The translations under genes were made by a program, and so were the position numbers. A DNA stretch of 64,000 nt. Source: an uncultured Gammaproteobacteria bacterium. GTDB lineage: Bacteria; Patescibacteriota; Microgenomatia; Levybacterales; GWA1-39-11. Numbering within the stretch: position 1 is the first letter of the stretch; every line of letters starts with the position of its first letter. This document shows, piece by piece, positions 3,001-52,717 of this stretch. The stretch spans positions 921 through 64,920 of the forward strand of contig CAZAJO010000008.1 of NCBI GenBank assembly GCA_964485575.1. The letters run 5' to 3'. Under the pieces are notes generated by a model. It worked only from the letters and a program-made list of their open reading frames with translations, made no database searches and had not been told where the DNA came from.

Positions 3001-6000
3001 ATGATACCGTCAAAAGACCTGCAATAGTCTGACCAACTGTGAAATTATTGTTCTGATTTCTATACGCAACGTTTGTAAGAGTACCTGCTGTGTTTATATC
3101 AACACCATTCAATTGAAGTGATGTTGTTGCACTTATTGATGATACAGATAGCGATCCACCATCACCATAGTCAGTTAATGTCAACAGATTATTTGGAGAA
3201 AGCTCAGCATCTCTTATTGTAAGGACTCCATTTGTACCCTGGGTTGCAAGTGTCACTATTGGTGATGCGTTTGAGAGTGTGAGAGGGGATACCCCTGACA
3301 ATGTGACAGTACCGGATGCAGCAATAGTTGTAGCACCTGAAATTGCACCTGCGTTTGTTAAGCCACCGGTGTTGTTATTTATCCCTCCTGTTATTGATGC
3401 ACCACCGGTCGACACAGTAAGAAGTCCAGCGATAGTTTGACCAACGGTAAAGTTATTATTCTGGTTCTTATATGCGACATTTGTGAGCGTGCCTGCGGTA
3501 TTTATACTTGTTCCGTTCAACTGGAACGCAGAAACAGCATTTATAATATCCCCCTCAATAGTTCCAGAGGCTGTGATATTGGTTGCCCCGGTTATTGCAC
3601 CGGCATTTGTTATACCACCCAAATTATTGTCAAGACCGGCAGAGATACTTGCTCCATTCGTCGCTGAAAGTAGTCCCGCAGCTGTTATTGCACCAGTTCC
3701 GGTTGTCACGATATTTCCTGAAGTCGTTAGATTTCCAAGCTCATCAATCGTCAAAGTAGAAGTTCCATTAGATTTGACATTGATAGCAATGCCTCCCGTT
3801 CCGGCAGCGGTGTCGTTGAGAATAAAGGCATTAGCTGTTCCAGCATTTGTAAGGGTGAATGATGTGGGAGAGCCAAGGCCACCTGCTAAAGTAAAGGCGA
3901 TATTTCTTCCCGTAGTTGTCGTTATAGTATTTCCATTGTCATATGCTGTCTGAAGCGTAGCGGTTGCAGCATTACAAGTAGCAATTTGGTTCAGAGCATT
4001 TCGACATAGCCCAATAGTGCCGTTCGTCCCCAAAGTTGGAACTTGTGTAAGATTGCTAAGCACAATTTGACCTGTGCCATTAGGGGTCAGTGTCAGATCT
4101 TCATTCGTACCGGTGGTTATGTCTGTCGAAACCCCATCAAAAGTAAGAGTACCGGTTGTGGTTATTGCACCCGATGAGATTGTTCCAATGTTGACCAAAT
4201 TGCCTGATGCATCAATCCTGTCTGTACCTGAGGTCTGGACTGAGGTTGTTGCATCAAGTGTCCCTCCTTGAATAGTGCCACTTGCTGTGATGTTTGTAGC
4301 TCCAGAGACGGCACCAGTGTTTGTGATTCCACCTGCATTATTATTTATTCCACCGGTAATATTAGCCCCGCCTGCACTCACCGTCAACAAACCTCCGATT
4401 GTCTGACCGACTGTGAAGTTGTTATTTTGACCCTTATAAGCGACATTTGATAGTGTTCCAGTTGTATTGATGTTTGTCCCGTTGAATTGTAGCGCTGTCG
4501 TTGCATTTACATTAGCAACAGTTAAAGTTCCGTTTGTTCCATTATCTGTTAAGGTGAGCAATGTATTTGGAGAGACTTCAGCATCTTTGATAGTGAAAAC
4601 GCCATTGTTTCCAGCTGTTGCAAGGGTAAGTACTGGCGCATTGTTTGACAACGTCAGAGGGGAAGCGCTAGATAAGGTAACAGTTCCTGAAGCATCAATT
4701 GTAGTTGCCCCGCTTATCGCCCCGGCACTTGTTATTCCGCCTGTATTGTTGTTTATTCCCCCAGTTATTGAAGCACCACCTGTTGTGACTGTAAGTGCTC
4801 CACCGATGGTCTGACCGACGGTGAAGTTATTATCCTGTCCTTTGTAGGCGACATTTGAAAGTGTTCCTGTAGTGTTAATGCTTGTTCCATTGAGAAGGAA
4901 AGCAGTAGTTGCGTTGATATTGGCTACGGCAAGAGTTGCAGTTGTACCATTATCGGTAAGAGTGAGAAGTGTATTTGGTGCTCCATTTGAATCTCTTATT
5001 GTCAGAACCCCGGCAGCATTTCCGGCTCCTAACGTCACAATAGGATTTGTATTACTAAAAGTAAGTGGACTTGCGCTTGAAAGAGTAACAGTACCTGATG
5101 CATCAATCGTGGTTGCCCCGGCAATAGCTCCGGTTCCGGTTATACCACCTGCATTATTTGCAATTCCACCGGTAATGTTTGCTCCACCGGCATTGATTGT
5201 AAGACCACCAGTTGTGATCGTCTGAAGAGCAGTGAAAGTATTGGCCTGATTTTGGTATGCAACATTTGTGAGTGTACCTGCAGTATTTATGTCTGTACCA
5301 GCAAGTTGAATAACGCTTGTTGCATTAAGAGTCGCACCTTGAATAGTGCCACTGGCTGTGATGTTAGTAGCACCTGTAATGGCGCCGGTATTGGTGATAC
5401 CACCGGTATTATTGTTGATACCCCCCGTTATTGATGCGCCACCTGATGATACAGTTAAAAGACCAGCAATTGTCTGACCTACAGTGAAATTATTGTTCTG
5501 GCCTTTGTAAGCAACGTTAGTAAGAGTACCTGTCGTATTTATATTTGCACCATTTATTTGAAGAGCAGAAAGAGCATTAACTGTCCCAACGGTAAGGGTT
5601 GCATCTGTTCCATTGTCAACCAAAGTCAACAACGTATTTGGTGAACCGGCAGAATCTTTAATAGAAAGCGTGCCATTGGCGTCTCCTGCCCCGAGTGTTA
5701 TATCTGGTGCCGAATTGGTTAACGTTATTGGCGCGGCTGATGAAAGGGTCACGGTTCCAGAAGCTGCAATTGTTGTCGCACCAGCAATTGCACCTGTGCT
5801 TGTTATGCCGCCTGCGTTATTATTGATACCACCATTGATTGATGCGCCACCAGCACTTACCGTAATACCACCAGTCGTAACAGTCAAAAGACCTCCAATT
5901 GTTTGTCCTACGGTAAAGTTATTATTTTGACCCTTGTAAGCAACGTTAGTAAGAGTACCTGTCGTATTTATATCTGTTCCTCCGAGTGTAAATCCTGTAC

Positions 6001-9000
6001 TTGCATTGACAGTTCCAACAGATAAGGTGCCGACAGTTCCATTGTCTGTGAGCGTAAGAAGTGTATTTGGAGACCCTTCAGCATCAGATATTGTCAGAGT
6101 TCCATCTGTACCTGCAGTTGCCAGCCTTATATTTGGATTTGCATTTGAAAGAGTGAGAGGTGATGACCCGGTAAGAGTTGCTGTTCCGCTTGCCGTTAGG
6201 TTTGTTATTCCTGTAATTGAACCTGTGTTTATTATTCCTCCTGAATTGTTATTAATACCACCCTTAAGGTATGCTCCTCCTGAATTAACAGTGAGAGCAC
6301 CTGCAGACGTGATTGTTCCGGTAGCAGTTGTAGTGATATTTCCGCTAGTTGAAATATTTCCAAGCTCTGAAATCGACAATTTTGAAACACCAGCAGATTG
6401 AACATCAAGAGCAACCCCTCCGGTTCCAGCATTGGTGTCATTGATGACAAATGCATTGGCAGACCCGGCATTCGTTAGAGTGAATTGAGTAGAAAGACCA
6501 GAGTCTAATGTGAAGTCAATGTTGCGTCCAGAGGTCGTAAGGATAGTGTTACCGGCATCATATGCTTGCTGTAATGTAACGGCACTTGCGTTTGCTGCAC
6601 AAGTAGAGAGTTGGTTGCTCGCGTTTCGGCAAACTGTTGTTAACCCGGTCGTTGCTGAAAGGGTAGCAACCTGGACGTAGTTGTTTAGGAGTATTTCGCC
6701 CGTTCCATTTGGTGCCAAAGTAAGGTTCTCATTTGGTCCTGTTGTGATATCGGTTGGAACTCCATTAAATGTTAAAACACCACTTGTTGTTATTGCACCT
6801 GAGCTTATTGTATTGATATTTGTCAGGTTACCGATTACATCTAATCTTGTTACTCCATTAGTTTGAATATTATTTGTAGCATTGAGGGTAGCTCCCTCAA
6901 TTGTGCCACTGGCTGTAATGTTTGTTGCACCTGTTATTGCACCGGTATTTGTGATTCCACCTGCGTTATTGTTGATGCCTCCTGTTATTGATGCACCTCC
7001 TGTTGTGACAGTAAGTGCTCCACCGATGGTTTGACCGACGGTGAAGTTGTTATCTTGACCCTTATAAGCAACGTTTGAAAGCGTACCGGTTGTATTAATG
7101 CTTGTTCCATTGAGAAGGAAAGCTGTAGTTGCGTTGATATTGGCTACGGCAAGAGTTGCAGTTGTACCATTATCGGTAAGAGTGAGAAGTGTATTTGGTG
7201 CTCCATTTGAATCTCTTATTGTCAGAACCCCGGCTGCATTTCCAGCTCCAAGTGTGATTATTGGAGTTGTATTTGAAAGGGTTAATGGCGAACCACTGGA
7301 AAGTGTTACCGTTCCAGAAGCAGCAATCGTTGTTGCACCGGCGATTGCACCGGTATTTGTTATACCACCTACATTATTGTCTATACCCCCAGTGATATTT
7401 GCTCCACCAGCACTGATGGTAAGACCGCCCGATGATATTGTTTGAAGAGCGGTGAAAGTATTGGCTTGATTTTGGTATGCAACGTTTGTGAGAGTTCCTG
7501 CTGTGTTGATATCAACTCCATTAAGTTGAATAACTGACGTACCATTAATGGTTGCTCCTTGAATAGTGCCACTGGCTGTGATGTTAGTAGCACCAGTAAT
7601 GGCGCCGGTATTGGTGATACCACCGGTATTATTGTTGATACCTCCAGTTATAGATGCTCCATCCGCACTGATAGTGAGTCCGCCGGTTGTGATCGTCTGA
7701 AGAGCCGTAAAGGTATTTGATTGATTTTGGTAAGCAACGTTTGTTAATGTACCTGCAGTGTTGATATCAACCCCACCGATCTGCAATGTCGTTCCAGCAT
7801 TTACTGATCCTGTAACAGAAAGATTCCCGACAGAACCAGCATCTGTCAAGGTTAGCAGAGTATTTGGAACACCTGCAGAATCTTTGATCGTAAATGTTCC
7901 ATTGGCATTTGCAGCACCCAATGTAACAATCGGATTCGTGTTACTAAATGTAAGAGGGGAGCCAGCAGAGAGTGTTACAAGTCCAGATGCTCCGATTGTT
8001 GTAGCACCTGAGATAGCACCAGTGTTTGTGATGCCACCTGTGTTATTGTTAATTCCTCCAGTTATTGATGCGCCACCCGTTGTAACCGTTAAAGCTCCAC
8101 CGATAGTCTGACCCACGGTGAAGTTGTTATCCTGTCCTTTGTAGGCGACATTACTAAGAGTGCCGGTTGTGTTGATGTTTGTTCCTCCTAGTAAGAATCC
8201 GTTCGCTGCATTTATTGTTCCTGTAACCGAAAGATTTCCAACTGTACCGGCATCGGTAAGAGTCAAAAGTGTATTTGGAGAACCTTCTGCATCTTTTATT
8301 GTTAATACTCCATCAACTCCAGCAGTTGCCAGAGAGATATTTGGAGTCCCGTTGGTAAGAGCAAGAGGATTTGCCCCTGACAATGTAACGACGCCTGATG
8401 CATCAATTGTTGTTGCTCCGGATATTGAAGCCGTGTTTATTATTCCGCCATTGTTGTTGTTGATACCACCAACGACTGAAAGACCACCAGCAGAAATAAT
8501 CTGTGCAGCCGTAAATGTATTTGATTGATTTTTGTATGCAACATTGGACAAAGTGCCTGCTGTGTTAATATTTGTTCCATTCAATTGAATTGCAGTAATT
8601 GCATTGAGTATATCGGTCTGAGTCGTTCCACTTGCTGTAATATTTGTAGCACCCGTAATTGCACCCGTATTTGTAATGCCTCCGGTATTATTATTAATAC
8701 CTCCAGTTATATCGGCTCCACCAGCTTGAATAGCAAGTCCCCCTGTTGTGATTGTTTGACCTGCTGTGAAAATATTAGCTTGGTTGAGATAGGCAACATT
8801 CGTAAGCGTACCTGCAGTATTTATGTTGGTTCCATTCAATAGATAACCGGTCCCAGCATTTATTGTTCCTGTGACTGAAAGATTGCCAACGGTACCGGCG
8901 TCGGTAAGTGTTAGAAGTGTGTTGGGGGAACCTGCAGAATCCCTTATTGTCAAAACACCATTCGCATTACCAGCTCCTAATGTCACTATCGGATTGGTAT

Positions 9001-12000
9001 TACTAAAAGTTAATGGAGATGCAGCAGATAAAGTAACAAGTCCTGATGCTCCAATTGTTGTTGCACCGGAGATAGCACCGGCATTTGTGATACCACCAGT
9101 ATTATTGTTGATGCCCCCGGTTATTGACGCTCCACCCGCACTTACGGTTAATGCTCCTGCTGATGTTATTGTTCCAGTTCCAGTTGTTGCGATGTTTCCA
9201 GATGTTGTGATGGTTCCAAGTTCTGTGATTGTCAAAGCTGAAGCGCTTGCAGACTGTATTTCAAATGCGATTCCACCTGATCCGGTACGTACGTCATTTA
9301 TGACAAACGCGTTCGCGCTTCCGGCATTCATGAGAGTGAAGGACGTTGGAGTTCCCGAATCCGTGTTTTCATCGTAAAGCGTAAAGTCGATATTTCGACC
9401 GGAGGTTGTAAGAATTGTATTCCCAGCATCATAAGCAAGTTGAAGCGTAACGCCATTTGAATTTGGTGCACATGCAGACAAGAAGTCACCTGCATTGCGG
9501 CACAAAGCCGTCGAGCCGTCAGGTGAAGCAAGAGTTGGAATCTGTATCGTATCATTGAGGTTGATAACTCCCGATCCATTAGCAACGAGTGTAAGATCTT
9601 CATTGCTTCCAGTTGTAATGTCTGTTGCAGCACCAGTTATAGTAACGGTTCCTGCGATATTTTGTGCAGTTGTGAAATTGTTGTTCTGGCCTTTGTAAGC
9701 AACATTTGTGAGAGTTCCGGTTGTGTTGATGCTTGTGCCATTCAATTGGAACACTGAGGTAGCATTGATAGTCGCACCTTGAATTGTGCCTGAAGCGGTG
9801 ATGTTTGTCGCTCCTGTTATTGCACCCGTGTTTGTGATACCACCGGTATTATTGTTGATGCCTCCGGTGATATTTGCACCACCAGCATTTATTGTAATAC
9901 CTCCTGTATTTATCGTCTGGCCGATGGCAAAAAGATTTGCCTGATCAAGATATGCAACGTTTGAAAGAGTTGTACCAACATTTATGTTGGTACCGTTCAG
10001 TAAAAATCCGGTTGTTGCATTGATGTTGGCAACTGCAAGTGTTGCATTTGTTCCATTATCGGTAAGTGTCAGAAGGGTATTTGGTGACCCTTGAGCATCT
10101 GCAATAGTGAGGACACCATCAACTCCGGTGGTTGCCAATGTTAGAACTGGTGCTGCATTTGAGAGAGTAAGCGGGGAAGCACCTGATAATGTCACGACAC
10201 CCGAAGCAGTGATATCTGTTACTCCAGAAATAGCTCCTGTGCTTGTTATTCCACCAGCGTTATTATTGATACCTCCGGTTATTGATGCGCCTCCGGTTGT
10301 GACGGTTAAAGCTCCACCGATGGTTTGGCCAACCGTGAAGTTGTTGTTTTGTCCTTTGTATGCGACGTTTGTGAGAGTTCCGGTTGTGTTGATGTTTGTT
10401 CCGTTCAATAGATATCCTCCAACTGCATTGATTGTTCCAGTCACTGAAAGATTTCCTACTGTACCAGTATCGGTTAATGTAAGAAGCGTGTTTGGAGAAC
10501 CCTCTCCATCTCTTATCGTGAGCGTACCATTGGATCCTGCTGCAGCCACAGTTATTGCAGAGGTGGTCGCAGTAAGTGCGAGTGGGGTACTACTTGAGAG
10601 TGTAACAAGGCCAGATGCATCAATCGTTGTTGCACTGCCAATAGCGCCGGTATTTGTTATACCTCCATTGTTGTTATTAATACCCCCAGTGACGGATAGC
10701 CCACCTGATGAGATTATTTGTGCTGCAGTGAATGTATTGGATTGATTCTTGTATGCAACATTTGTGAGAATACCTGCGGTATTTATATCAGTTCCGTTCA
10801 GCTGAAGAGCAGTAATAGCATTGATGATATCTCCCTGAATCGTTCCTGACGCAGTAATATTTGTAGCACCGGTTATAGCACCTGTGTTTGTGATACCACC
10901 AGTATTGTTGTTAATTCCACCGGTTATTGATGCGCCACCGGTTGTGACGGTTAAGGCTCCACCGATGGTTTGGCCAACTGTGAAGTTATTGTTTTGTCCT
11001 TTGTACGCAACGTTTGTGAGAGTTCCGGTTGTGTTGATGTTAGTTCCACCCAAAAGTATTCCTGTTCCTGCATTTATGGACCCTGTCACTGAAAGATTAC
11101 CTGTAGTACCGGTGTCTGTTAATGTTAGAAGGGTATTTGGAGCTCCTTCTGCATCTTTTATAGTAAGGACTCCATTCGTGCCAGCTGTAGCAAGAGTAAT
11201 TACTGGAGCACTATCTGAAAGAGTTAGAGGTGCGGCATTTGAAAGGGTCACAACTCCAGAGGCGTCAATTGAAGTTGCGCCACTTATCGCACCGGCATTT
11301 GTGATACCCCCTGCGTTGTTGTTGATACCACCGGTAACATCAAGCCCACCGGCTTGGATTGCAAGTCCCCCAGTCGTAATGATCTGACCGGCAGTGAAGG
11401 TATTTGATTGGTTTTTATATGCAACGTTTGTGAGGGTGTTTGCAGTATTTATATTTGCACCATTCAATTGAAGAGCACTTGTCGCATTGATCGTGCCAAC
11501 TGTCAAAGTTGCAACAGTTCCGTTGTCAACAAGAGTAAGAAGTGTATTTGGTGTTCCATTTGAATCTTTGATTGTAAGCGTACCGGCAGCATTTCCAGCA
11601 CCCAAAGTGATGATTGGAGTAGTGTTTGAAAGCGTAAGTGGGGAGGCTCCTGATAGCGTCACTACACCTGAAGCAGCAATTGTAGTTGCTCCGGCGATTG
11701 CACCTGTGTTTGTGATGCCACCATTATTATTGTTGATTCCACCAGAAATGTTTGCACCCCCCGCAACAACAGTTATTCCGCCGGTATTGATGGTTTGTCC
11801 CAAGGTGAATGTATTAGCAGTATCAAGGTACGCAACGTTTGATAATGTACCACCGGTATTTATATTTACACCGTTGAGTTGAATTGCTGTTATCGCATTT
11901 AATATATCTGTTTGCGTCGTTCCTGATGCAGTAATATTTGTAGCACCGGTTATGGCACCCGTGTTTGTGATGCCACCAGTGTTATTGTTAATTCCACCTG

Positions 12001-13350
12001 TTATTGAAGCGCCACCTGTTGTGACGGTTAAGGCTCCACCGATGGTTTGGCCAACAGTGAAGTTGTTGTTTTGTCCTTTGTACGCAACGTTTGTGAGAGT
12101 TCCGGTTGTGTTGATGTTTGTTCCGTTGAGTTGGAATCCACTAACAGCATTTATTGTGCCACTTATTGCAAGATTTCCAACGGTACCAGCGTCGGTAAGC
12201 GCAAGAAGGGTATTTGGTGACCCTTCTGCATCCCTGATCCTCAACACTCCATTATTTCCTGCGGTTGCAAGCGTAATATCAGGAGCACTGTTAGACAGAG
12301 TGAGTGGGGCAGCCGAGGAGAAGGTGTTGGTATTAGTAAATACGTTTGCTTGGTCTAGATAGGCAACATTTGATAGTGTTCCACCCACATTTATACTTGT
12401 TCCGTTGAGCTGGAATGCTGTCAATGCGTTGATTGTATCTCCCTGAATAGTTCCCGACGCAGTGATATTTGTTGCTCCTGTTATTGCACCGGTGTTTGTG
12501 ATTCCACCATTGTTGTTGTTGATTCCACCTGTTATTGAAGCGCCCCCCGCACTAACAGTAAGGGCACCTGCTGAGGTTATAGTTCCAGTTCCAGTTGTCG
12601 CGATGTTACCTGATGTTGATATAGTACCTAGCTCAGAAATTGTTAACGCAGAGACACTTGCAGACTGTACCTCAAAAACAATTCCACCCGATCCAACATT
12701 TGAGTCATTGATCACAAAAGCGTTTGCGCTTCCTGCATTTGTAAGTCTTAACTGAGTCGTAAGACCGGAATCAAGAGTGAAGTCGATGTTCTTTCCTGCA
12801 GTTGTAAGGATCGTATTTCCACCGTTATATGCTGATTGTAAGGTTACTCCAAATGCTGTAGGGTCACATTGTGAAAGTTCATTCGTTGCATTTTGACAAA
12901 GGACGGTAAAGCCTTGAACACCTGCAAGTATTGGAATTCCAACTGTATCGTTAAGTACAATCTTACCTGTACCATTTGCTAGCAGTGTAAGATCCTGATT
13001 TGATACTGTTGTTATATCTGTTGAAACTCCACTAAATGTAAGTGTACCTGTGGTGGTGATAGCCCCAGAAGCTATTGTTCCAATGTTGACAAGATTTCCT
13101 GATGCGTCAACCCTTTGCGTTCCATTCGTCTGTATCGAAGTTACTGCATTTAGTATATCCCCCTGGCTAGTGCCAGATGCTGTTATGTTTGTTGCTCCTG
13201 TAATTGAACCAGTGTTTGTTATACCACCTGTGTTATTGTTGATTCCACCGTTGATAGATGCCCCTCCAGCTGTAACAAATAGTCCATTAGCTGAAGTTAT
13301 CGTTCCTGAACCGATTGTCTGGATGCTATTTGAAGATGAAATGTAACCAC
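1..13350 (-). repeat. intragenic repeat zone 3: super-repeats of one Cys-loop module plus 2-9 short NVAY-type beta-strand units
   Basis: C-x9-C pairs lie at 12866/12896, 9470/9500, 6599/6629, 3974/4004 and 1388/1418. About 28 copies of the antisense signature of NVAY(K/L/Q)(G/N)QNN.FT are spaced about 250-285 or 390-430 nt apart. Each carries GGINNNTGGITNTGAI.GATNITASG. Segments 4875-5029 and 7095-7249 are 152/155 identical. Confidence 0.85.
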
Positions 13351-16300
13351 TCGTTGAGGCATTTCCGCTTTCATCAATGGTAAGTCTTCTATTTCCACCA
13401 GACTGGATTTCAAGAGCTACTTGGTTTGGAGCGGCATTATTATCATTGATAATAAATGCCGATGCTGTTCCTTCGTTTGTTAAAGTAAGTGAGGTTGCAG
13501 CATTGAGACCGGAAGCAAGAGTAAAGTCGATGTTTCTACCCGAGTTTGTAAGAATTGTATTTCCGTTGTCATAGGATGATTGCAAGGTGCCTGCTGATGA
13601 GCCAACGTCGCAGAGAACTACTTCATCATCTCCATTAGTACAAAGAGGACTTCCAACAACAGTAACTAAGTTCTCTATGGTTACCGTACTGTTTGCTGCA
13701 AGTGTAGTGAATTTTCCTGATGAGCGCGTAGTGTTTCCGATTGGTGTATTGTCTATAGATCCTCCCGTTATAACAGCGTTACTTGAAGAGAGATTGTTTG
13801 CAGTAACTGCACCAACGAGATTTACCGTATCTGTTCCGGATCCGATATTAATAAAGTCTGGACTCGTGTTGTCTGTTCCGATATTGACGGTGTTACCGGT
13901 CGACAACGTTCCAATATTGATTGAGCCATTGGCTGATGCTCCGGCTCCTGCATTAATTGTGACTGATCCACCGGTTGATCCTCCGGCAGTAGATGTCCCA
14001 GCAACTAGTCTGAGATTTCCACCCGTAGCATCAACAGTAGAGCTTGCCGGATTGATAGTGATATCAGTTCCACCAACGAGGGTAGTAATGTCTGATGTGT
14101 TGTCTCCGGCAAGATATATAACTCCTGCCTCAGACACCTTAAGGGTTGATGCGCCATTTGACTGAAGATCAAAGAATGTACCGCCTCCCCCAGCTGATGT
14201 GTCATTGAGAATGAATGCACTTGCAGTACTTTGATTTTCCAAAGTGAAAGATGTTGGAAGATTAAGACCCGGAGCCAATGTGAATGCAATATTTCGTCCG
14301 TCATTTGTAAGGATTGTATTTCCATTATTGTATGAGGACTGAAGGGTTCCGGTTCCTGATCCTATTGAACATTTGATTATGTTATCGAATGAATCTATAC
14401 ATAGCGCAGTTCCTGAGCTTGTCGTCAAATTTTCGATAAGGACAGTGCTATTGGCAGCAAGTGTTGTGAATGCACCAGAAGAGCGGACGGTAGCACCAAC
14501 GCTCGTTCCATTTATAGTTCCTCCAGTAACAGTCACTCCGCTTGAGTTGAAGTTGTTAGCTGTAACTGACCCGACAAGGTTTATGGTGTCTAACAAAGAC
14601 CCTATATTGACAATATCGGCCAAGGTATCATTTGTTGCTATATTTATGACATTTCCCCCGGTTCCGGTTCCTATATAGATAGTCTTTGCACTATTACCAA
14701 TACCTAGATTAATGTCTCCTGTCGTTCCTGTATCAAGAGTTAGGGAATTGGAACCTGTAGCAGATATCGTTCCGACTCCAGCAAAAGTTAGATCGGTTGC
14801 ACTAACGCCAATTGTGTCAAGACTAATGACGCCCGTTAATGCTCCAAGCGTTGTGACATTTAATCCTCCGTTTGATGTGACCGCAAAAGTACCGGTAGCA
14901 TTGCCAATTGCTACATTTCCTGTTCCGGTTGTTGCGATGTTTACATCGGATGCACCTGAAGTTCCAAGATTTGTCGTACCTGTTGATGAAAGAGTTGTAA
15001 AGGCTCCCGTTGATGGGGTTGTTGCACCAATTGCAGTACTATTTATACCTGTTGCGGTTGCTGTGAAGTTGCCTGAAGTGATCAGTAAATTGTTGACTCC
15101 GGCATTGATAGATGATGCAGACAAACCTGAAAGACTGAGTACCCCGGAAGTTGCGGTAAGATTGATTGCCCCGGTCGTCAGGGTCAACCCATTTGATGCT
15201 GTCAAAAGACCAGCAGATGTTATAGTACCGGTTCCGGTTGTTGCTATATTTCCACTTGTTGTAAGATTTCCAAGCTCATTTATGGTCAAAGTTGCAGATC
15301 CGGAGGACTGAATCTCAAGAGCAGTATTTGTATTCTCGTTATTGTCGTTGATGATAAATGCAGAAGCTGTCCCTTGGTTTGTGAGAGTCAATGAGGTCGT
15401 CTGATCTTGACCCAATGTAAAGTCAATACTTCTTCCAGGAGTCGTTGTTATAGAGTTCCCAGTGTTGTAAGCAGCCTGCAGTCCAAATGGTGCACCGTTA
15501 CAGTACGCAAGGTTGTTACTTACGTCCAAACAAAGGGTGTTCCCATTCTGAGTCTGTAGACCATTGATCTGGATTCTCTCATTAGATGTTGTATTGAACA
15601 CTACGTTGTTACCGGTTGATGGTGTAAATACAGCAGATCCTGAAGCATCAAATGAATTTCCATTTGTGATAATCACATTTCCGTTGAAAGTAGAGATCCC
15701 AGCAACATCTAGAGTACTTCCAAGAGTAGTAGCTCCAGTCCCAACGCTAAAGGTATTGCTACCGGTGACCGTTGTATTCCCGTTCAACGAAACGTTACCG
15801 GTACCCGTGGAGAACGTGTATGCTCCAACTTGGGTAATATTATTATTGAAAGTTCCAACTCCATTGACAGTCAATGCACCTCCAAGAGTCGTAAGACCGG
15901 TTCCTACGGTAAATGTATTTGCTCCCGTTACTGATGTATTTCCATTCAGAAGAGTCAGTGCATTAATGTTGAGGTTCCCAATCCCATTTAATGGGCTTAG
16001 TGTGATTTCACCTGTTGTGTCACCACCGATGGTGAGTGCACTAAGCTCTGTGGTCTGAATAGAACGTGGTGCTCCTGCAAGTGTCAAATTACCAGAGATA
16101 GATGCATTACTGGTCGTCGTAAGCAAAGTGAAATTACCGGTTGAAGGAGTAGTTACTCCAATTGCAGTACCGTTGATACCCGTTGCGGTAGTATTGAAAT
16201 TATTTGATGTGAAAGTCAAATTGTTTCCTCCGGTGTTGATACTTGATGCAGAAAGCCCAGAAAGATTTAATGTTCCCGAAGTTGCGGTTAGATTGAGTGC

Positions 16301-19300
16301 TCCTGTTGTTAATGTCAGTCCGTTTGATGCTGTCAAAAGACCTGCAGAGGTTATTGTTCCAGTGCCGGTTGTAGAAATATTGCCACTAGTTGTTAGATTT
16401 CCAAGCTCATTGATAGTGAGTGTAGCAGATCCCGAGGACTGGATCTCAAGGGACGTATTGGTATTTGCATTGTTATCGTTAATGATAAATGCACTAGCTG
16501 TACCAAGGTTTGTTAGTGTGAGTGAAGTTGTCTGATCCTGACCCAATGTGAATGCCAAATTTCGTCCAGGAGTTGTCGTTATCGTATTTCCTGTATTATA
16601 TGCAGCTTGAAGTCCGAAAGGTGCTCCGTTACAGTACGCAAGGTTGTTACTTACGTCAAGACATAGAGTATTACCATTCTGAGTCTGTAGACCATTTATC
16701 TGTATCCTCTCAGTACCAGTAGTATTGAATACTACATTGTTCCCAGACGAAGGAGCAAAAACAGCAGCGCCTGAAGCGTTGAATGAATTACCTGTTGTTA
16801 TAAATACGTTACTGTTAAATGTTGCAGTGCCCGCAACATCAAGAGTGCTTCCAAGAGTTGTAGCACCGGTTCCGACAGTAAAGGTATTGGATCCGGTAAC
16901 TGAAGTGTTTCCATTGAGTGAAACATTACCAGTTCCTGTTGAGAATGTGCCTGTCCCTGTTTGGGAAATGTTGTTGGTAAATGTGCCGACTCCATTAACT
17001 GTTAGTGCTCCCCCGAGTGTTGTAAGCCCGGTTCCAACAGTTAAAGTGTTCGTACCTGTAACTGATGTATTACCGTTTAGAGTGATTGCGCCAGTTCCAG
17101 TTGTGAATGTGCTAGCACCTACCTGGCTTATGTTGTCATTAAATGTGGATACACCTAAGACATTCAATGTACCGTTGAATGCTGAATTTCCATTGACCGT
17201 AAAGTTACCTGCACCTGAAAGAGGGGATACCACAATATTTCCTGTCGTATTTCCACCAATTGTAAGAGTGTTGTTCTCGGTTGTCTGGATCGAGCGGGGA
17301 GCACCGGCAAGAGTTAGATCTCCAGAGAATGATGCAGTACCAGTTGTTGTTAGATTTGTGAAATTACCCGTCGATGGAGTAGTAGCACCGATGGCAGTGT
17401 TGTTTATGCCAGTAGCAGTGACGGTAAAATTACCGGATCCGATGAGTAAATTATTTCCTCCAAACTGTAGTGATGAAGCAGATAGACCAGACAAATTGAG
17501 TGCTCCTGATGTACCGGTGATATTAACAGCACCAGTCGTTACGCTGAGTCCGTTTGACGCTGTCAATAGCGCATTAGATGTTATAGTGCCTGTTCCGGTA
17601 GTTGCTATATTTCCACTCGTTGTAAGATTTCCAAGCTCGTTTATAGACAAAGTTGCAGATCCCGAAGACTGGATTTCAAGAGATGTATTAGTATTGGCAT
17701 TATTGTCATTGATGATAAATGCTGAAGCAGTACCCAGATTAGTCAGGGTAAGAGATGTTGTCTGATCTTGACCCAATGTAAATGCAAGGTCACGACCCGG
17801 AGTTGTCGTTATCGTGTTTCCGGTGTTGTATGCTGCTTGAAGTCCAAATGGAGCACCGTTACAGTATGCAAGATTATTGCTTACATCCAAACAAAGGGTG
17901 TTCCCATTCTGAGTCTGTAACCCATTGATTTGAATTCTTTCATTTGAGGATGTATTAAATACGACATTATTGCCGGTAGAAGGTGTAAATACAGCTGATC
18001 CTGAAGCATTGAATGAGTTACCAGTTGTTACAAATACGTTGCCATTAAATGTTGCTGTACTAGCAACTGTAAGCGTACTGCCCAACGTTGTCGCACCAGT
18101 TCCGACTGAGAACGTATTGCTTCCTGTGACAGATGTATTTCCATTCAAAGAAACTGTTCCAGTCCCTGTTGAGAATGTACCGGTGCCAACTTGGCTAATA
18201 TTGTTGTTGAATGTTGCAGCCCCTTGTACACTCAAAAGGCCAGTGATGTCGGTGTTACCAGCAATCTGCACAAGTCCAGTCGTATTACCACCGATAGTCA
18301 GAGTGTTAAAGTCGGTCGTCTGAATTGAGCGTGGGGCACCTGCAAGAGTCAGATTCCCAGAGAATGAGGCATTCCCCGTAGTTGTGAGTGTAGTGAAATT
18401 ACCGGTGGAAGGGGTAGTGGCTCCTATTGCAGTATTGTTGATTCCGGTCGCAGTTGTATTGAAGTTTGATGAGGTGAATGTCAGAGCATTTGCACCTGAA
18501 TCAAATGTAGACGCACCAAGTCCAGTAAGAACAATTGCGCCTGAAGAACCAGTTATGTTTACAGCTCCAGCTGTGACTGTAAGGCCATTTGAAGCAGTTA
18601 ATAATCCGTTAGATGTTATTGTTCCCCCTGAGGTTGTGAGGATATTGTCAATAGTTGAAAGAGTTCCATTCTCACTTATTGTAAGCGTAGCCGAACCACT
18701 ACTTTGAATAGACAGTGCATTTTGGATAGAAGCATTGGTGTCATTGATAACAAATGCTGCACTTCCGGTTCCGGCATTGGTGAGCAGGAACTGACGTGAT
18801 GAAAGATCAGCAAGTGTAAAGTCAATATTCCCATGAAGATCGTTAGCAACTATGGTATTTCCTGAATTGTATGCCTGCTGTAGGGTAACATTAAGAGCGT
18901 TTGATGAACAAATAGAAAGCTCGTTTGCCCCATTTCGACAAACAACTGTCGCACCAACGGTTCCTGAAAGATTTGGAATCCTTGTTATAGTATTTAGTAC
19001 TATTTGTCCCGTTCCGTCAGGTGAAAGAGTAAGATCCTCATTTGAATTGGTTGTGATATCTGTTGCAGCACCTGAGAATATGAGCCCTGTAGATCCTATC
19101 GATTTATTTGAAAGAGTCTGGGTCTGATTAGCAAAAATGAATGTGTCATCTGCAGTGAGTGCTGGAATGGTGGCAAATCTTGACGCAGAGGGAGCAAGAG
19201 ATGTGATTGTCGTAGTATTAGTCGTTCCAAGTACTACCTGGTTTGTTGTGTTTGTGAGATTTAGAGACGCAAATGTTGGCGATGATGTCGCAGCGATACT

Positions 19301-41821: not shown

Positions 41822-43864
41822 ATGAATCTTGATACTCCTGTTGGAGAACTCGGACTTACATTCCGACTTAAAAAATCAGCACTTGCTAGACTCAACATTT
41901 TCACTCTAGGAGATCTCCTTTTTCATCTCCCATTCAGGTACGAGGACTTCACAAATGCCGTTACCATTAGAAATCTTAAGATAGGGCAACAATCTGTGAT
42001 AAGAGGAAAGGTTCTTGATATAAAGAACGAGTACACAAAAAAAAGGTTTGTTCTTCAAAAAGCAAAAATCATGGATGACACGGGAACTGTCGAATGCACT
42101 TGGTTCAATCAAACATATATAACCCGAATTATCCATAAAGGTGACGAAATAGGACTTGTCGGAAAGCTTGATTTTTTTGGGAAAAAACCCACCTTTCAAG
42201 TAAAAGAATATGAAGTCATATCCAACGAATCTGGGCTTCATACAACTGGATTTGTACCTGTTTACAATGAAACGAAAGGACTTTCATCCAAATGGTTACG
42301 AAACAGAATAAATGACATCCTCACTAATAATAAAACGACTGTTCAGGAATATTTACCTCTACAAGAATTGAAAAAACTCAACTTCGCCGATTTGTATACT
42401 GCTCTTAAGACTTGTCATTTTCCCCAAGATATAAAATCAGCTGACCTTGCACGAGCGCGACTAGCTTTTGATGAATTATTACTTTCACACTTAGCAGCAA
42501 TTAAAAGAAGACGCGAATGGGAAGAAAAAAATAAAGGAGTACCATTCCAAACTGCAAATTACAAACTGCAAACTACAAAATTTATAAACTCCTTGCCATT
42601 TGAGCTAACAGGTGGACAGAAAAAAGCACTCTCAGATATTGAAAATGATTTACAAAGGGATATACCAATGAATAGACTCTTGGAGGGGGATGTAGGTAGT
42701 GGAAAAACAGTTGTTGCAGCGATTTCGATGTATATAGCACACCTCAATTCTTTCCAGTCAGTACTAATGGCACCCACGGAGATTCTTGCCAACCAACATT
42801 ACGATACTATTTCAAAACTCTTCGAACCCCTAGGTGTTTCAGTCGGCCTCCTCACCGGTTCGTCCAAAACAGGTTCTAAACTCTCAACTCTCAACTCTCA
42901 ATTCTCAATTCTTGTAGGTACTCACGCTCTTATTCAAAAAAATGTGAATTTTGAAAAACTAGGACTTGTTGTCATTGATGAGCAGCAGCGGTTTGGGGTA
43001 GAACAGCGCTCGATCTTACGAGAAAAAGGTACTAACCCTCATTTCTTGACGATGACTGCAACACCTATCCCAAGAACAATTCTCTTGGCTGTATATAAAG
43101 ACCTTGATATTTCATTATTAAATGAATTGCCGAAGGGAAGGCAAAAGATAAAGACTTGGCTTGTCCCCAACAAAAAAAGAGAGAAAGCATACGAATGGAT
43201 AAAAAAACAGATTGTCGAAAGTGAATTTGCCGATCAAGCATTTATTGTTTGTCCATTTATAGAAGATTCTGAAAGCATGGACACCATCAAAGCAGCAAAA
43301 TCAGAGTTTGAAAGGTTGCAGCATGAGGATCTGAAAGGACTCAAGCTTGGATTGTTACATGGAAAAATGACAGGAAAAGAAAAAGATCAGGTGCTTATGG
43401 ACTTTAAGGATAAAAAAACACACGTACTTGTCGCAACACCTGTTGTTGAGGTAGGAATTGATATACCAGGTGCCACAATCATGGTAATTGAGGCCGCCGA
43501 GCGATTTGGACTTTCCCAGCTACACCAGCTCCGAGGTAGGGTAGGCCGGGGTGACAAGCAGTCTTATTGTCTCTTATTCACCGAATCTGAATCTGAGATT
43601 GCTACAAAAAGACTATCATTTATGGAAACTTCCCATAGTGGTTTTGAACTTGCAGAGTTGGATCTAAAACTTCGTGGTGGAGGAGACCTTTTCGGTACAC
43701 GCCAACACGGAGCAGGCGGCATGAAAATTGCAGATTTTTCAAATTTTGAACTTGTTGAAAAAGCAAAAAACGAAGCTGAATATTTGATCAAAGATCTGGA
43801 AAATAATCCGAAGCTTTTAGAAAAAGTGGAAAGTGTCTCGCAAAAATTAGTCCACCCCGACTAG
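41822..43864 (+). CDS. recG: ATP-dependent DNA helicase RecG
   Basis: Wedge/OB N-terminus, GDVGSGKT, DEQQRFG, TATPIPRT and QLRGRVGRG motifs. Confidence 0.93.
   Translation: MNLDTPVGELGLTFRLKKSALARLNIFTLGDLLFHLPFRYEDFTNAVTIRNLKIGQQSVIRGKVLDIKNEYTKKRFVLQKAKIMDDTGTVECTWFNQTYITRIIHKGDEIGLVGKLDFFGKKPTFQVKEYEVISNESGLHTTGFVPVYNETKGLSSKWLRNRINDILTNNKTTVQEYLPLQELKKLNFADLYTALKTCHFPQDIKSADLARARLAFDELLLSHLAAIKRRREWEEKNKGVPFQTANYKLQTTKFINSLPFELTGGQKKALSDIENDLQRDIPMNRLLEGDVGSGKTVVAAISMYIAHLNSFQSVLMAPTEILANQHYDTISKLFEPLGVSVGLLTGSSKTGSKLSTLNSQFSILVGTHALIQKNVNFEKLGLVVIDEQQRFGVEQRSILREKGTNPHFLTMTATPIPRTILLAVYKDLDISLLNELPKGRQKIKTWLVPNKKREKAYEWIKKQIVESEFADQAFIVCPFIEDSESMDTIKAAKSEFERLQHEDLKGLKLGLLHGKMTGKEKDQVLMDFKDKKTHVLVATPVVEVGIDIPGATIMVIEAAERFGLSQLHQLRGRVGRGDKQSYCLLFTESESEIATKRLSFMETSHSGFELAELDLKLRGGGDLFGTRQHGAGGMKIADFSNFELVEKAKNEAEYLIKDLENNPKLLEKVESVSQKLVHPD
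42881..42908 (+). repeat. heptanucleotide array (CTCTCAA x3 + TTCTCAA) inside recG
   Basis: The sequence at 42878-42913 is aaaCTCTCAACTCTCAACTCTCAATTCTCAAttctt and encodes KLSTLNSQFSIL. It is about 80% identical to the pilin leader coding sequence at 51626-51664. Confidence 0.9.
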
Positions 43865-43866
43865 TA

Positions 43867-43895
43867 TTGCCATTAAGCCTCAAATTCTGTATAAT
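43867..43895 (+). promoter_or_regulatory. promoter candidate (rpmF)
   Basis: TTGCCA - N17 (ttaagcCTCAAAttctg) - TATAAT (43890-95) - N10 - ATG 43906. Confidence 0.5.
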
Positions 43896-43905
43896 ACTGA
43901 GAAGT

Positions 43906-44082
43906 ATGCCACAAGAGCCAAAGAGAAGACATTCTAGACAAAGAAAGGGGAAAAGACGAAGCTCTATTTCTCTTGATTCAATTGCAGCCTCAGTTTGCAA
44001 AAACTGTGGATCTGTAGTTGTACCTCACACTATCTGCAAAGCATGCGGATATTACAAAGGCCGCCAAGTACTTTCTAAATAA
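43906..44082 (+). CDS. rpmF: 50S ribosomal protein L32
   Basis: MPQEPKRRHSRQRKGKRR...CKNCG...H..CKACGYYKGRQV. The track ORF begins upstream at a non-ATG codon. Confidence 0.85.
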   Translation: MPQEPKRRHSRQRKGKRRSSISLDSIAASVCKNCGSVVVPHTICKACGYYKGRQVLSK

Positions 44083-49502: not shown

Positions 49503-49556
49503 GCTACGACCTGCTATTCAGGTTGCGCTACGACCTGCTATGCAGGTTGCGCTATG
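49503..49556. repeat. 24-nt tandem direct repeat (2.2 copies), each copy hairpin-forming
   Basis: GCTACGACCTGCTATTCAGGTTGC (49503-26) and GCTACGACCTGCTATGCAGGTTGC (49527-50) are 23/24 identical, followed by a partial GCTATGGAC. Copy 2 contains the palindrome ACCTGC-TAT-GCAGGT. The array overlaps the stop codon at 49552-54. Confidence 0.85.
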
Positions 49557-50136
49557 GACTAAAGTTTCTCATCGTAACTGATGTATTGAATGGACTATTT
49601 GCTGTATTTTCACTTGTAGTATTTGCTCTTTGTGAAACGGTGAAAGATACGCTTATGATAGGCTGAGAATAAGGGTTTGCATTATTTTGTAAACACGAAA
49701 AAGTACAGCTAGCAGGATCAACTTTTACTGAATTATTGTCTATTAGATAGGTAGTTATAGAACCACTGGAGGAAGCTATGCTTGCTGATTGAATATCGCA
49801 AGAAAACGCTACGAGTGAGTTATCGGATTGCTTGAATTCGATTGACGTGCCTGACTTAAGAGTAGTGCAATCTGAGATGGCAACACCTCCAACTTTTGTC
49901 ACTGACTCAGCCAATCTTGCAGTATTTGAAATAATTGAAAGAGCATAATTACCATTTTGAGAAACATCATTTGTTACTTTAGTCTTATTACCACCACGAA
50001 GAGTAGAGTAGAGAATACCGACTATTAGCCCCGACACAATCACAATGATACTTGTAACAGCCAAAAGCTCAACAAGAGTGTAGCCCTTTTGGCCATTTTT
50101 TAGTTTGTAGTTTATAGTTTTTAGTTTGGTAATCAT
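49552..50136 (-). CDS. minor pilin / pseudopilin (prepilin-type N-terminus)
   Basis: ...NGQKG|YTLVELLAVTSIIVIVSGLIVGIL. Confidence 0.7.
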   Translation of the reverse strand: MITKLKTINYKLKNGQKGYTLVELLAVTSIIVIVSGLIVGILYSTLRGGNKTKVTNDVSQNGNYALSIISNTARLAESVTKVGGVAISDCTTLKSGTSIEFKQSDNSLVAFSCDIQSASIASSSGSITTYLIDNNSVKVDPASCTFSCLQNNANPYSQPIISVSFTVSQRANTTSENTANSPFNTSVTMRNFSP

Positions 50137-50616: not shown

Positions 50617-51168
50617 TCATTGAACAGAAATATTTCCACCGGAATCAATAGTGATAGTTTTTGTCTGACCGTATCCAATCACTACGATATTACATGGAGC
50701 CCCACCAACCGTTGACGACAAAGGACTAAAATGAACCTGAGTACAAGTAGTTGCAGCAGAAAAAGTTAAATTGTTGGGTAAAACAAGAAGTCTTATGCGT
50801 GAGGGGCTTACATTCTCGCACAATTGATTGAGTTCCATCTGAGAATTACCAAGCATATTTATTGTGTATCCCCCAAGAGAATCAGAACCACAAGAGATGG
50901 TATTGCCATTGAGGTCTTGATTGGTCTTGACTGCAGATAGTGCGTTGAATCGAGCCTGACTAACAAGAAGTTTTATATTATTGCCGGTTTGATTGACTTG
51001 TTGGGAGTGACTATACGTAACGAAAGACACAATTCCTATGCCAGAAAGTACAGCAATTATGCTAAACACAACAAGAAGCTCAATTAGGGTGAAACCACGA
51101 GAATTTGAGAGTTGAGATTTGAGAATTAAGAATTTTAAATTTGTGATCTTCTGGGTAAAACATTTCAT
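50617..51168 (-). CDS. pilin-like protein (GspH/FimT-like), long leader
   Basis: ...LKFLILKSQLSNSRG|FTLIELLVVFSIIAVLSGIGIV. The leader is encoded by a heptamer array. Confidence 0.75.
   Translation of the reverse strand: MKCFTQKITNLKFLILKSQLSNSRGFTLIELLVVFSIIAVLSGIGIVSFVTYSHSQQVNQTGNNIKLLVSQARFNALSAVKTNQDLNGNTISCGSDSLGGYTINMLGNSQMELNQLCENVSPSRIRLLVLPNNLTFSAATTCTQVHFSPLSSTVGGAPCNIVVIGYGQTKTITIDSGGNISVQ
51104..51136 (-). repeat. heptamer array (NTCTCAA on the coding strand) in the pilin leader
   Basis: The + strand reads tttgagaGTTGAGATTTGAGAATTAAGAatttt. Confidence 0.85.
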
Positions 51169-51176
51169 ACTTAAAT

Positions 51177-51205
51177 ATCAATTCTCAATTTTCAATTATC
51201 AATTT
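51177..51205. repeat. intergenic heptamer array, inverted relative to the leader arrays
   Basis: The + strand reads ATCAATT CTCAATT TTCAATT ATCAATT, directly after the pilin stop (51206-08). Confidence 0.85.
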
Positions 51206-51667
51206 TTATGGGCTGGTTAATTTGAAAGGTACATTCGGGGAAGTACAAACGTTAGCGTCGGCTTGATCAGTATCCTTCTCAGAGTCATTTGAATTCTCAA
51301 GGCAACCAAATAGTGTGTAGGTAGATCCGTCAACTGCTGCAGTATATATATAAGGGTCACCCGTAACTGGATCACATGGTACTTTCTGCATATATACGGT
51401 CCCATTTACTGAAATCCCATTACCACAAGTAGATAGATTTGCAGTAGCAGGGTAGTCACCATTATCTGCTCTGTAAAGCTCTAAAGCAGACTGCATTTGG
51501 TACATATTTGACTTTCTTTGCCCGTCTCTTCCTCGTTGTCTTGCACCAATGAAATTTGCTGTCAAAAGAGCTGTGAGAATAGCAATTATAGAGATTGAAA
51601 CCAATAATTCGATGAGCGTGAAACCTCGAGGGTTTGAGAGTTGAGATTTGAGAGTTGAGAATTTCAT
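51206..51667 (-). CDS. type IV pilin / T2SS-G-like pilin
   Basis: MKFSTLKSQLSNPRG|FTLIELLVSISIIAILTALLTANFIGARQRGRDGQRKS. Confidence 0.85.
   Translation of the reverse strand: MKFSTLKSQLSNPRGFTLIELLVSISIIAILTALLTANFIGARQRGRDGQRKSNMYQMQSALELYRADNGDYPATANLSTCGNGISVNGTVYMQKVPCDPVTGDPYIYTAAVDGSTYTLFGCLENSNDSEKDTDQADANVCTSPNVPFKLTSP
51634..51663 (-). repeat. heptamer array (TCTCAAC TCTCAAA x2) in the pilin leader
   Basis: The coding strand reads atgaaatTCTCAACTCTCAAATCTCAACTCTCAAAccc. Confidence 0.9.
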
Positions 51668-52029
51668 GATTGATTCTTAAGTTTATTAATTATAGAAACC
51701 AGTATGGCTACAATCTCATTTGATTCACTTTTAAGTTTAGATAGTTCTTTTGCCGAAAGCAAGCCTGATACCTCAATGACTTCAAGCCAATAGTATGTCT
51801 CCTTAGCTTCTCGAAGAGAAATGAGCATTTTTTGCCTAAAATCCTTAGGTGATGATGCATCTTGCGCCTCGTAAACATTCGCCCCAATTGAAGTAGCAGA
51901 CCTAACAATTTGAGATGCTAACGCGTAACCTGCAGGAGTTTTTGGAAACATATTAGACAACCTTATAGTATCTGAAGAAAAAGAAATCAAACGTTGCATA
52001 AATTCTTTTTTCCATTGATTTCTGTCCAT
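51664..52029 (-). CDS. four-helix-bundle protein (23S rRNA intervening-sequence protein / Avd family)
   Basis: IVRSATSIGANVYEAQDASSPKDFRQKMLISLREAKETYYWLEV matches the family signature (IGANIAEG...S..DF...L.IA.GS..E). ATGA overlap with the pilin start. Confidence 0.75.
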   Translation of the reverse strand: MDRNQWKKEFMQRLISFSSDTIRLSNMFPKTPAGYALASQIVRSATSIGANVYEAQDASSPKDFRQKMLISLREAKETYYWLEVIEVSGLLSAKELSKLKSESNEIVAILVSIINKLKNQS

Positions 52030-52050
52030 AATGTGAACATTTTTAAATTT

Positions 52051-52070
52051 TCAAATCTCAATTCTCAATT
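52051..52070. repeat. intergenic heptamer array, inverted copy of the pilin-leader sequence
   Basis: The + strand TCAAATCTCAATTCTCAA (52051-68) matches the reverse complement of 51634-51651 at 17/18 positions. Confidence 0.9.
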
Positions 52071-52717
52071 CATGGCGATATATTTGGGCTTGTAACTCCA
52101 TAGGTGCAGGGCACATTTGTTCCGCAGGTTATATCTGTTCCGCCAATTCCGGTCCCAATCGTACTTTGGCAAGCACTTCCGCCATTGCAAGCCTGAGGAT
52201 CATTGCCACCTCTGTCTAAAGATGCATAAAGTGCATACGACTGCCCGGTAGAATCTGACCAGTACGCATAATTCTTAGCAACCTTTGGATCTATTGGGAG
52301 TACATCCATATATGGACTCCATGTGTGTCCCCATGCAACTGCGGTACCGCTTGTCCCATCTGTGGATATCTCATTTATGTTTGCAGCTTGGTAGGCTGGA
52401 GGATATCTATGGAAGTCGTTATAATAGACCTCAAGTGCTCTTTGGACCTGTGCAAGGTCTCCTTTTCTTTTTGAGTCCTGGCTTTTATTGAACTGCTCAA
52501 CTGGATTGACAACGGCAAGGATGAGTGCGGACAAAACTCCAAGAACACCGATGACCGTAATTAGCTCGATGAGAGTAAATCCACCACTTACCCCTACAAG
52601 AAGTTGTTGACGAAGATATTGAGGATTTGTTCTCCCCAAAAAAGGGATATCACGACTGAAACAACCAAAAAAGGTCCGAACGGAATTGTGCTTCCAAAAA
52701 AGTGCAATTTGCGCCAT
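52070..52717 (-). CDS. pilin-like protein, start uncertain
   Basis: ...LLVGVSGG|FTLIELITVIGVLGVLSALILAVV. The only in-frame starts are ATG 52717 (46-aa leader) and TTG 52639 (20-aa leader), and both overlap the 3' end of pilD. Confidence 0.7.
   Translation of the reverse strand: MAQIALFWKHNSVRTFFGCFSRDIPFLGRTNPQYLRQQLLVGVSGGFTLIELITVIGVLGVLSALILAVVNPVEQFNKSQDSKRKGDLAQVQRALEVYYNDFHRYPPAYQAANINEISTDGTSGTAVAWGHTWSPYMDVLPIDPKVAKNYAYWSDSTGQSYALYASLDRGGNDPQACNGGSACQSTIGTGIGGTDITCGTNVPCTYGVTSPNISP

Follow-up and report, generated by a model that had tools for sequence, protein, structure and literature searches.

The recG gene of a Levybacteria-type genome carries, in frame and within helicase domain 1, a tandem array of a 7-nt unit that recurs in the prepilin leaders of the same genome. 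The gene lies in the 64-kb stretch of DNA analysed here (the window), which its RecG homologues place in Candidatus Levybacteria, a lineage of the Candidate Phyla Radiation (CPR). The array, which we call site 2, is probably a translated and tolerated heptanucleotide simple sequence repeat (SSR) in a permissive loop of RecG. It would belong to a genome-specific family of arrays and be maintained by slippage and by recombination of short patches, with selection holding the frame open, and its likeness to the pilin leaders would stem from this unit family rather than from invasion by a pilin element. The gene and the array are as follows.

41822..43864, + strand: recG, intact, 680 residues, a 100% match to protein P0001, which has the RecG Pfam domains.
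42875..42912, + strand: site 2 heptanucleotide array of CTCTCAA/TTCTCAA units, encoding (S)KLSTLNSQFSIL, residues 352-363.

The gene product aligns to the structure of Thermotoga maritima RecG (TmRecG, 1GM5) with E = 9e-141. It has the wedge domain and two RecA-like helicase domains, including the motifs GSGKT, PTEILA, DEQ(H/Q)RFGV and QLHQLRGRVGR, whose columns are invariant in the RecG alignment. The Pfam domains RecG_wedge, DEAD, Helicase_C and RecG_dom3_C are found on identical or near-identical proteins. At 42875-42912, Tandem Repeats Finder reports a period of 7 with 5.4 copies and 93% matches, and the array contains three perfect CTCTCAA units (42881-42901) plus two imperfect ones. An earlier note on this DNA, made from the letters alone, had quoted the perfect repeats as well as the translation of 42878-42913 into KLSTLNSQFSIL, directly before VGTHAL, and both were reproduced by a check of sequence and frame. 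Its claim that the array replaces the segment normally preceding the (I/V)GTHAL motif also holds: in the alignment to 1GM5, the array stands where TmRecG has TPSEKEKIKSGLRNGQIDVV, with 4 residues fewer. The segment aligned to this helix-loop of TmRecG is deleted in many Levybacteria.

In an AlphaFold2 (AF2) model of RecG built from 54 orthologues, the predicted local distance difference test (pLDDT) score is below 50 at residues 349-358, between confident strands at residues 341-344 and 363-366. Because of the low pLDDT, the TmRecG alignment and the hypervariability among orthologues described below, site 2 appears to sit in a flexible, dispensable part of RecG helicase domain 1. It would be a poorly constrained surface segment that runs from the TGS motif to the strand ahead of VGTHAL and DEQQ. 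Gain or loss of one or two units is computed to bring a stop codon into frame at residues 363-380, before motif II, and loss of three units leaves recG in frame. Purifying selection would preserve this reading frame. The native FDIL codons (TTC GAT ATT CTN) hold a TTC-7-TTC proto-repeat, and the array could therefore have arisen in place.

The surroundings of the array contain few additional features. Within 700 nt, a search for an inverted partner or hairpin gave only noise-level pairs. The best inverted match to the array end (42359-42374 with 42902-42917, 15/16 complementary) is borderline, and its upstream arm is an AATTGAA-rich stretch 527 nt from the array end. An antisense or internal promoter arising from TTGAGA repeats was considered and rejected, since no promoter-like site overlaps the array. 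No Rfam match was found anywhere in the window.

Major differences at site 2 can be observed across an alignment of 120 RecG orthologues. The segment from TGSKK to xxI(L/V)(V/I)GTHA is hypervariable and ranges from ~6 to ~70 residues. Recurrent peptides at this position are heptamer translations: NSQFSIL corresponds to (AATTCTC)n, and KLKIENLKLKI to an AAAATTG-type array in the opposite orientation. Longer inserts hold both arms of an inverted pair, as in L016 and, by prediction, in the two-armed insert of P0120. An AAAAATT-type array occupies the site in L014, and a near-perfect (AATTCTC)x4.5 array in L015, whose RecG is only 56% identical to that of the window. In L012 (90% identical) the site has no array and the gene is intact. 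The earlier note held that chance convergence would be indicated if relatives encoded the same peptide by non-repetitive DNA and the genome had no other copies. Instead, L001, L009 and L015 encode the same peptide by repetitive DNA, and further copies exist.

Comparison with relatives reveals two kinds of behaviour at the site. One is the exchange of a short cassette around the array, which has the following extent.

42856..42916, + strand: cassette patch allele A, 61 nt, with the TCTCAA-type array, as seen in the comparison of the window with L006.

The allele of L006 (B, 49 nt) contains a CTAAACC-type array and is wholly different from allele A, whereas outside the patch the two recG genes have 8 differences and are 99.6% identical. 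The A/B dimorphism is also present within a second lineage, between P0005 (A) and P0240/L140 (B). Patch alleles are 89-96% identical between lineages, compared with only 75-84% for the recG backbones. Taken at the level of sequence, these values suggest either that lineages exchange short tracts or that the DNA as such is constrained. A search of the 64-kb window and of the DNA of L006-L011 gave no silent donor of the alternative allele, and no duplication was found at the patch boundaries between the window and L006.

The other kind of behaviour is constancy of length. Within allele A the array is equally long in the window, L001 and L009, and P0058 agrees in length, despite 15-25% DNA divergence; relatives whose DNA is 75-80% identical likewise keep this length. 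The three leading units of the window array are perfect. Their counterparts in the equally long arrays of L001 and L009 have diverged by point changes, which suggests homogenisation of the window units by slippage or conversion. Turnover at site 2 would have two routes: slippage, which homogenises the units, and short-patch recombination, which swaps cassette alleles of 50-60 nt between lineages.

Two observations concern other parts of recG. The differences between the recG genes of L009 and L140 (93% identical) are clustered at nt 106-300 and 1491-1632, which suggests frequent short-patch recombination along the gene, beyond the array site. The recG of L001 (5482-7524) contains an internal stop at codon 325, outside the arrays, and its 324-residue fragment is P0244; this gene could be a pseudogene or reflect an assembly error.

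The arrays are a feature of the lineage rather than of one gene. We surveyed ~225 kb of Levybacteria-type loci from nine distinct genomes, using shuffles and two Clostridiales recG loci as controls. The survey yielded 42 period-7 arrays, against 0-4 at each of periods 4-6 and 8-13; the shuffles gave ~0 arrays and the Clostridiales loci none. A scan of the window for periods 4 to 13 gave six arrays of period 7, none of any other period, and none in 50 dinucleotide shuffles. The units are diverse and include CTCTCAA, CAAACTA, ACTAATC, TAGTGAA, CTAAACC, AACTGGC, ATCCAGT and AGCTACC, among others. Three classes of site are occupied: the first 3-43 codons of prepilin genes; positions ~20 nt or less upstream of start codons (rpmF, rpsP, trmD and pilins); and in-frame positions within recG (four sites), pheS and pheT (two sites). 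It is possible to account for this distribution if tandem 7-nt arrays arise and are retained frequently in the lineage, with essentially no other period, and if the arrays persist where they do little harm, namely in prepilin leaders, 5' untranslated leaders and loops of housekeeping proteins.

Arrays of one genome resemble each other. Counting a unit as shared at no more than one mismatch in any rotation or strand, 29% of same-genome array pairs share their unit, compared with 12% of pairs from different genomes (permutation test, p = 0.0002). When only pairs separated by more than 1 kb are counted, the values are 26% and 12% (p = 7e-4). A recG array and a pilin-leader array share a unit in the window, L002, L009 and the distant L005, and the unit is a different one each time. 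Since the similarity ends where the arrays end, the shared unit is best described, as far as the sequences go, as a real property of these genomes that reflects a unit family and not a bounded element. Ectopic conversion, repeated seeding and selection by a factor are candidate mechanisms of this sharing. The unit itself is widespread: a metagenome scan with (YTCTCAA)3 matched at least 120 contigs with a GC content of 0.32-0.71, and none of the matches listed lies in a recG or prepilin context. The unit is therefore specific neither to pilins nor to Levybacteria. The contigs among the matches listed contain at least 270 period-7 arrays, against 2-19 at each other period.

All arrays of the window outside recG are located in a pilin cluster at 49.5-52.7 kb, whose genes match Pfam N_methyl and T2SSG. 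The gene order from recG to this cluster is kept in the relatives examined; a RecG search of genome contigs gave three relevant loci. The arrays and genes concerned, together with a second array in recG (site 1) that the earlier note had overlooked, are listed here.

42544..42579, + strand: site 1 array in recG, period 7/14, CAAACTG/CAAACTA type, encoding FQTANYKLQTTKF in the wedge-helicase linker.
51634..51660, - strand: heptamer array with sense units CTCTCAA/ATCTCAA in the leader MKFSTLKSQLSNPRG of prepilin 51206..51667 (Pfam N_methyl, T2SSG).
51105..51134, - strand: heptamer array in the leader of prepilin 50617..51168 (…NLKFLILKSQLSNSRG, then FTLIELL; Pfam N_methyl).
50097..50127, - strand: heptamer array with sense units CTACAAA/CTAAAAA in the leader of prepilin 49552..50136 (MITKLKTINYKLKNGQKG, then YTLVELL; Pfam N_methyl).
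51178..51204, - strand: intergenic array in the opposite orientation, sense TTGAGAA/TTGATAA, 9 nt upstream of the pilin start at 51168.
52041..52071, - strand: oppositely oriented array that precedes the 23S_rRNA_IVP gene and forms an inverted pair with 51634-51661.
51664..52029, - strand: four-helix-bundle gene (Pfam 23S_rRNA_IVP, E = 5e-23), bracketed by inverted heptamer arrays.

Of 35 positions compared between site 2 and the leader of the first prepilin (51664..51630, - strand), 29 are identical. Each of the two sequences is read in frame 0 relative to the start codon of its gene, in agreement with the ~80% identity in the same frame that the earlier note had given. Loci of the CTCTCAA family start at 42875, 51105, 51178, 51634 and 52041, and the recG and pilin arrays of this family have the same sense on the mRNA. 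A 14-nt probe of two units, CTCTCAACTCTCAA, has 11 sites in the window at up to 2 mismatches, compared with 0.82 expected, and none of 100 shuffles reaches 11. The likeness of recG and pilin leaders that the earlier note had pointed out is thus real and non-random, and chance similarity is ruled out by the shuffles. Site 1 is similarly related to the leader of pilin 49552..50136 (20/24 identical), and L001 has a TTTTAAA-type array of equal length at the same position.

The leader arrays can set the frame of a pilin gene. In L009, (TACAAAC)x5 at 18304-18340 is in frame in a prepilin leader and gives a 193-residue pilin. In L010, (TACAAAC)x4 at 18304-18333 is out of frame, a stop follows after ~23 codons, and the gene is not called. 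Both arrays are orthologous to the one at 50097-50127 in the window, and the two strains have identical RecG. These sequences make the gene a candidate for phase variation of a pilin in the CPR.

Two inverted pairs are present in the cluster. The array at 51178..51204 pairs with 51102-51134 around a pilin start codon (33-nt arms), and the RNA of 51215..51095 folds with -20.8 kcal/mol (z = -2.9). The arrays at 51634-51661 and 52041-52068 form 28-nt arms that are 82% complementary and 379 nt apart. The 23S_rRNA_IVP (Avd-like) gene between them is present in the window and L011 and lacking in L009 and L010, where the same RecG is encoded. In L005, another copy of the gene at 9523-9918 is located directly upstream of recG. 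Such genes may be linked to the heptamer arrays.

Several points weigh against a tolerated repeat that is kept by slippage and recombination. Slippage alone cannot change the unit, so that recombination or conversion must be added, and neither was directly observed. Patch alleles conserved above the gene backbone are odd for neutral DNA, and could indicate constraint on DNA or RNA or a very recent spread. The sharing of units among distant arrays of one genome has no demonstrated mechanism. In the 64 kb of this genome that are visible, arrays occur only in recG or the pilin cluster. Finally, the recG genes of L017, L018 and L019 are split with the array lesion as their sole lesion, and a reversible switch would look alike.

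The last point leads to the strongest competing explanation, an adaptive contingency switch, in which a change of one or two units would reversibly truncate RecG and alter recombination or repair, perhaps jointly with switching of the pilins and DNA uptake. We consider it unlikely, although several features fit. The unit is not divisible by 3, so that one or two units more or less truncate the protein, and the window array is more perfect than those of relatives. In L017, recG is split at site 2 into two otherwise intact open reading frames (ORFs) by (ACACCTC)x3, with 25 nt between the frames. In L019, with 22 nt between the frames, the split lies in an AAAAATT-type array that has one unit too many, and in L018 an in-frame TAG is located within the array. 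The frame of a pilin is set by the same kind of array in L009 and L010. Because recG is split in distant lineages and a pilin switches frame, site 2 of recG is fragile, and the second hypothesis of the earlier note has some substance.

Other evidence argues against a switch. Only three perfect units are present at site 2, compared with five in the pilin tract that varies, and the length of the recG array is constant among divergent relatives. The protein collection contains no truncated RecG allele at 90% identity or above, OFF-type alleles being seen only in the distant L017 and L019. Truncated RecG C-termini are not enriched at site 2 overall, and most truncations are at contig ends. The three split genes were picked for ending at the site and thus give no estimate of frequency. 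Equivalent arrays are found in pheS and pheT; these genes are essential, and the arrays in them cannot be there to turn expression on and off. Of the slippage-based switching of recG raised in the earlier note, the truncation by one or two units and the out-of-frame alleles of two other lineages therefore stand; in this lineage, adaptive switching is possible but unproven. Lack of an adaptive role is what we infer for the window array. Elsewhere in the protein, truncated RecG C-termini cluster loosely around residues 420-460 and 500-540.

A second explanation, which we regard as quite improbable, is that the arrays are functional cis-elements that bind a genome-specific factor on RNA or DNA, and that the recG copy joins a pilin regulon. 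Many arrays lie in the first codons of genes or no more than 20 nt ahead of a start codon, pilin starts are flanked by inverted pairs whose RNA fold has z = -2.9, and arrays of one genome tend to share units. The patch alleles conserved above the backbone and the common mRNA sense of the CTCTCAA-family arrays in recG and pilin genes would also agree with such a role, and TAACTGA repeats offer a precedent for a translational regulator (PMC4679880). However, units vary widely within one genome and between close relatives, so that there is no single recognition motif. The recG array has no nearby inverted partner, promoter-like site or Rfam match, and L012 does without an array. Arrays adjacent to start codons may have a regulatory role like that proposed for TAACTGA repeats, but this does not extend to the recG copy.

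Still more doubtful is a genome-wide heptamer system, in which the arrays of pilin leaders, 5' leaders and loops of genome-maintenance genes are kept alike in trans as coordinated contingency loci. The pilus genes, which serve DNA uptake or host attachment, and recG would then switch or swap cassettes together, and alleles A and B would be a maintained polymorphism and not debris. Homogenisation in trans could proceed by ectopic conversion, templated synthesis or a co-evolving binding factor.

The earlier note had proposed that a short mobile or recombinogenic element invaded recG. A miniature mobile element in frame, similar to the Rickettsia palindromic elements (RPE) and copied from the pilin region into recG, is very unlikely. 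In-frame repetitive DNA within a conserved gene and the presence of one unit at several loci would be expected of it, and some orthologues have both arms of an inverted pair at the site (L016, peptides RIMNQES…HDSLFIIHNS). However, the arrays have neither conserved termini nor a target-site duplication, and apart from the 7-nt unit they share neither a length nor a consensus. Homology stops at the array edges and does not extend into the flanks, and units differ between lineages at the same site. No transposase is associated with the arrays in any syntenic locus. In place of a discrete pilin-leader element, the recG array is one of many heptamer arrays of the lineage, with various units, in 5' untranslated regions, leaders and loops.

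It is hardly credible that the arrays serve as an inversion substrate, by which a recombinase would invert the 8-kb segment between the recG array (+) and the pilin leader arrays (-): their orientation is inverted and their reading frame the same, but the gene order is collinear in every relative examined with no inverted arrangement seen, no recombinase ORF is present at 42-53 kb, and the products would be RecG-pilin chimeras.

The tolerated repeat that we favour has counterparts in other bacteria. Heptamers of the type called short tandemly repeated repetitive (STRR) sequences were reportedly described from cyanobacteria by Mazel in 1990. According to two papers, heptanucleotide repeats are the most abundant class of long SSR in most prokaryotic genomes (Mrazek, Guo and Shah 2007, as given in PMC4679880 and PMC4692102). 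The same papers propose slippage related to the polymerase footprint as a cause and describe dispersed, genome-specific heptamers (PMC4679880, PMC4692102). As far as these accounts extend, the Levybacteria arrays share with long SSRs and STRR the tandem 7-nt units, the strong excess of period 7, the few genome-specific units at many loci, the variation of length and sequence among close relatives, and the occurrence of inverted pairs. Tandem copies, period-7 excess, a recurring unit and variation among relatives were all found here. The long SSRs and STRR of those accounts are mostly intergenic, and coding ones are usually multiples of three, whereas in this CPR host heptamers occupy prepilin leaders as well as conserved hot spots within housekeeping genes, where they are read in frame. 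In our literature search, we found no description of heptamer repeats in CPR or in pilin leaders.

The TAACTGA repeats of marine Beggiatoaceae and cyanobacteria are likewise located a few nt upstream of starts, with a minority inside ORFs, mostly at the protein periphery, and for them, as here, both a mobile and a regulatory nature can be considered (PMC4679880). They differ in having one unit per genome with stops in all forward frames (PMC4679880), while the present arrays have many units per genome, selected or preserved in a way that leaves the frame in use open. The GGGAATC heptamers of Xanthomonas and GGGGAYT heptamers of Nostoc are also genome-specific, with conserved positions, varying length or sequence and occasional inverted pairs, but they are G-rich, quadruplex-forming and intergenic (PMC4692102). 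The Levybacteria arrays are G-poor, AT-rich and often coding.

In Neisseria opa genes, the copy number of CTCTT coding repeats in the signal-peptide region sets the frame. The resemblance lies in a pyrimidine-rich SSR, a unit that is not a multiple of 3 and a location in the leader-coding region of a surface protein, and the L009/L010 pilin pair behaves in the manner of opa phase variation (PMC3745409). Unlike opa, the recG tract belongs to the gene of a cytoplasmic repair helicase and contains only three perfect units, and in this lineage it is not polymorphic between ON and OFF states. RPE are selfish DNA of 100-150 bp inserted in frame in protein-coding genes, with a consensus and a palindrome. 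As in RPE, repetitive DNA is translated here as an extra surface segment of a conserved protein whose function is kept; unlike RPE, only a tandem 7-nt unit of variable array length and without ends is present.

CPR bacteria are uncultured episymbionts and are believed to need type IV pili in order to attach and to take up DNA. To our knowledge, there is hardly any information on the ways in which their surface or genomes vary. The unusual features of this system are the in-frame arrays of period 7 only in housekeeping genes, the cassette dimorphism across lineages and the natural ON/OFF alleles of a pilin, and they are of interest more for what they reveal of variation and recombination among CPR bacteria than for recG. 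A CPR lineage has dense microsatellites of period 7 only, translated inside conserved proteins, and natural ON/OFF pilin alleles would be a first lead to phase variation in CPR. The spread of RecG loop cassettes from one lineage to another would outpace the divergence of the remaining gene. The arrays may thus offer a handle on the long noted and unexplained excess of heptamers in bacteria as well as on recombination tract lengths in CPR populations. For annotation, they account for recG and pilin genes that are sometimes called split or missing.

Further arrays were noted in relatives. L005 has perfect in-frame arrays in pheS, pheT and the recG wedge domain (603-632, 1954-1989, 2716-2739 and 10419-10476), made of AGCTACC x4, ATCCAGT x5 and AACTGGC-type x8 units with peptides such as LPATSYQLPV and QPATGNWKLATGNWQL. 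A third TCTCAA-family array is located at 2729-2762 of L015 (recG codon ~454), where the window has no array. Downstream of recG, the leader of rpmF (L32) contains the promoter TTGCCA-17-TATAAT at 43867-43895 of the window, with the likely start ATG at 43906. In L001, L009, L011, L012 and L002, the interval from the -10 box to the ATG contains heptamer arrays, which the window and L006 lack. They are of the ACTAATC type in the relatives, and L002 has TTAGGGT plus an inverted partner. The corresponding regions are 43865-43908 in the window, 7585-7619 in L001 and 12093-12110 in L002; in L009, L011 and L012 the region is located just downstream of recG. Far from recG, at 1012-15349 of the window, Tandem Repeats Finder reports many imperfect repeats of 12, 18 and 21 nt on one strand, which probably mark a very large gene for a repetitive protein.

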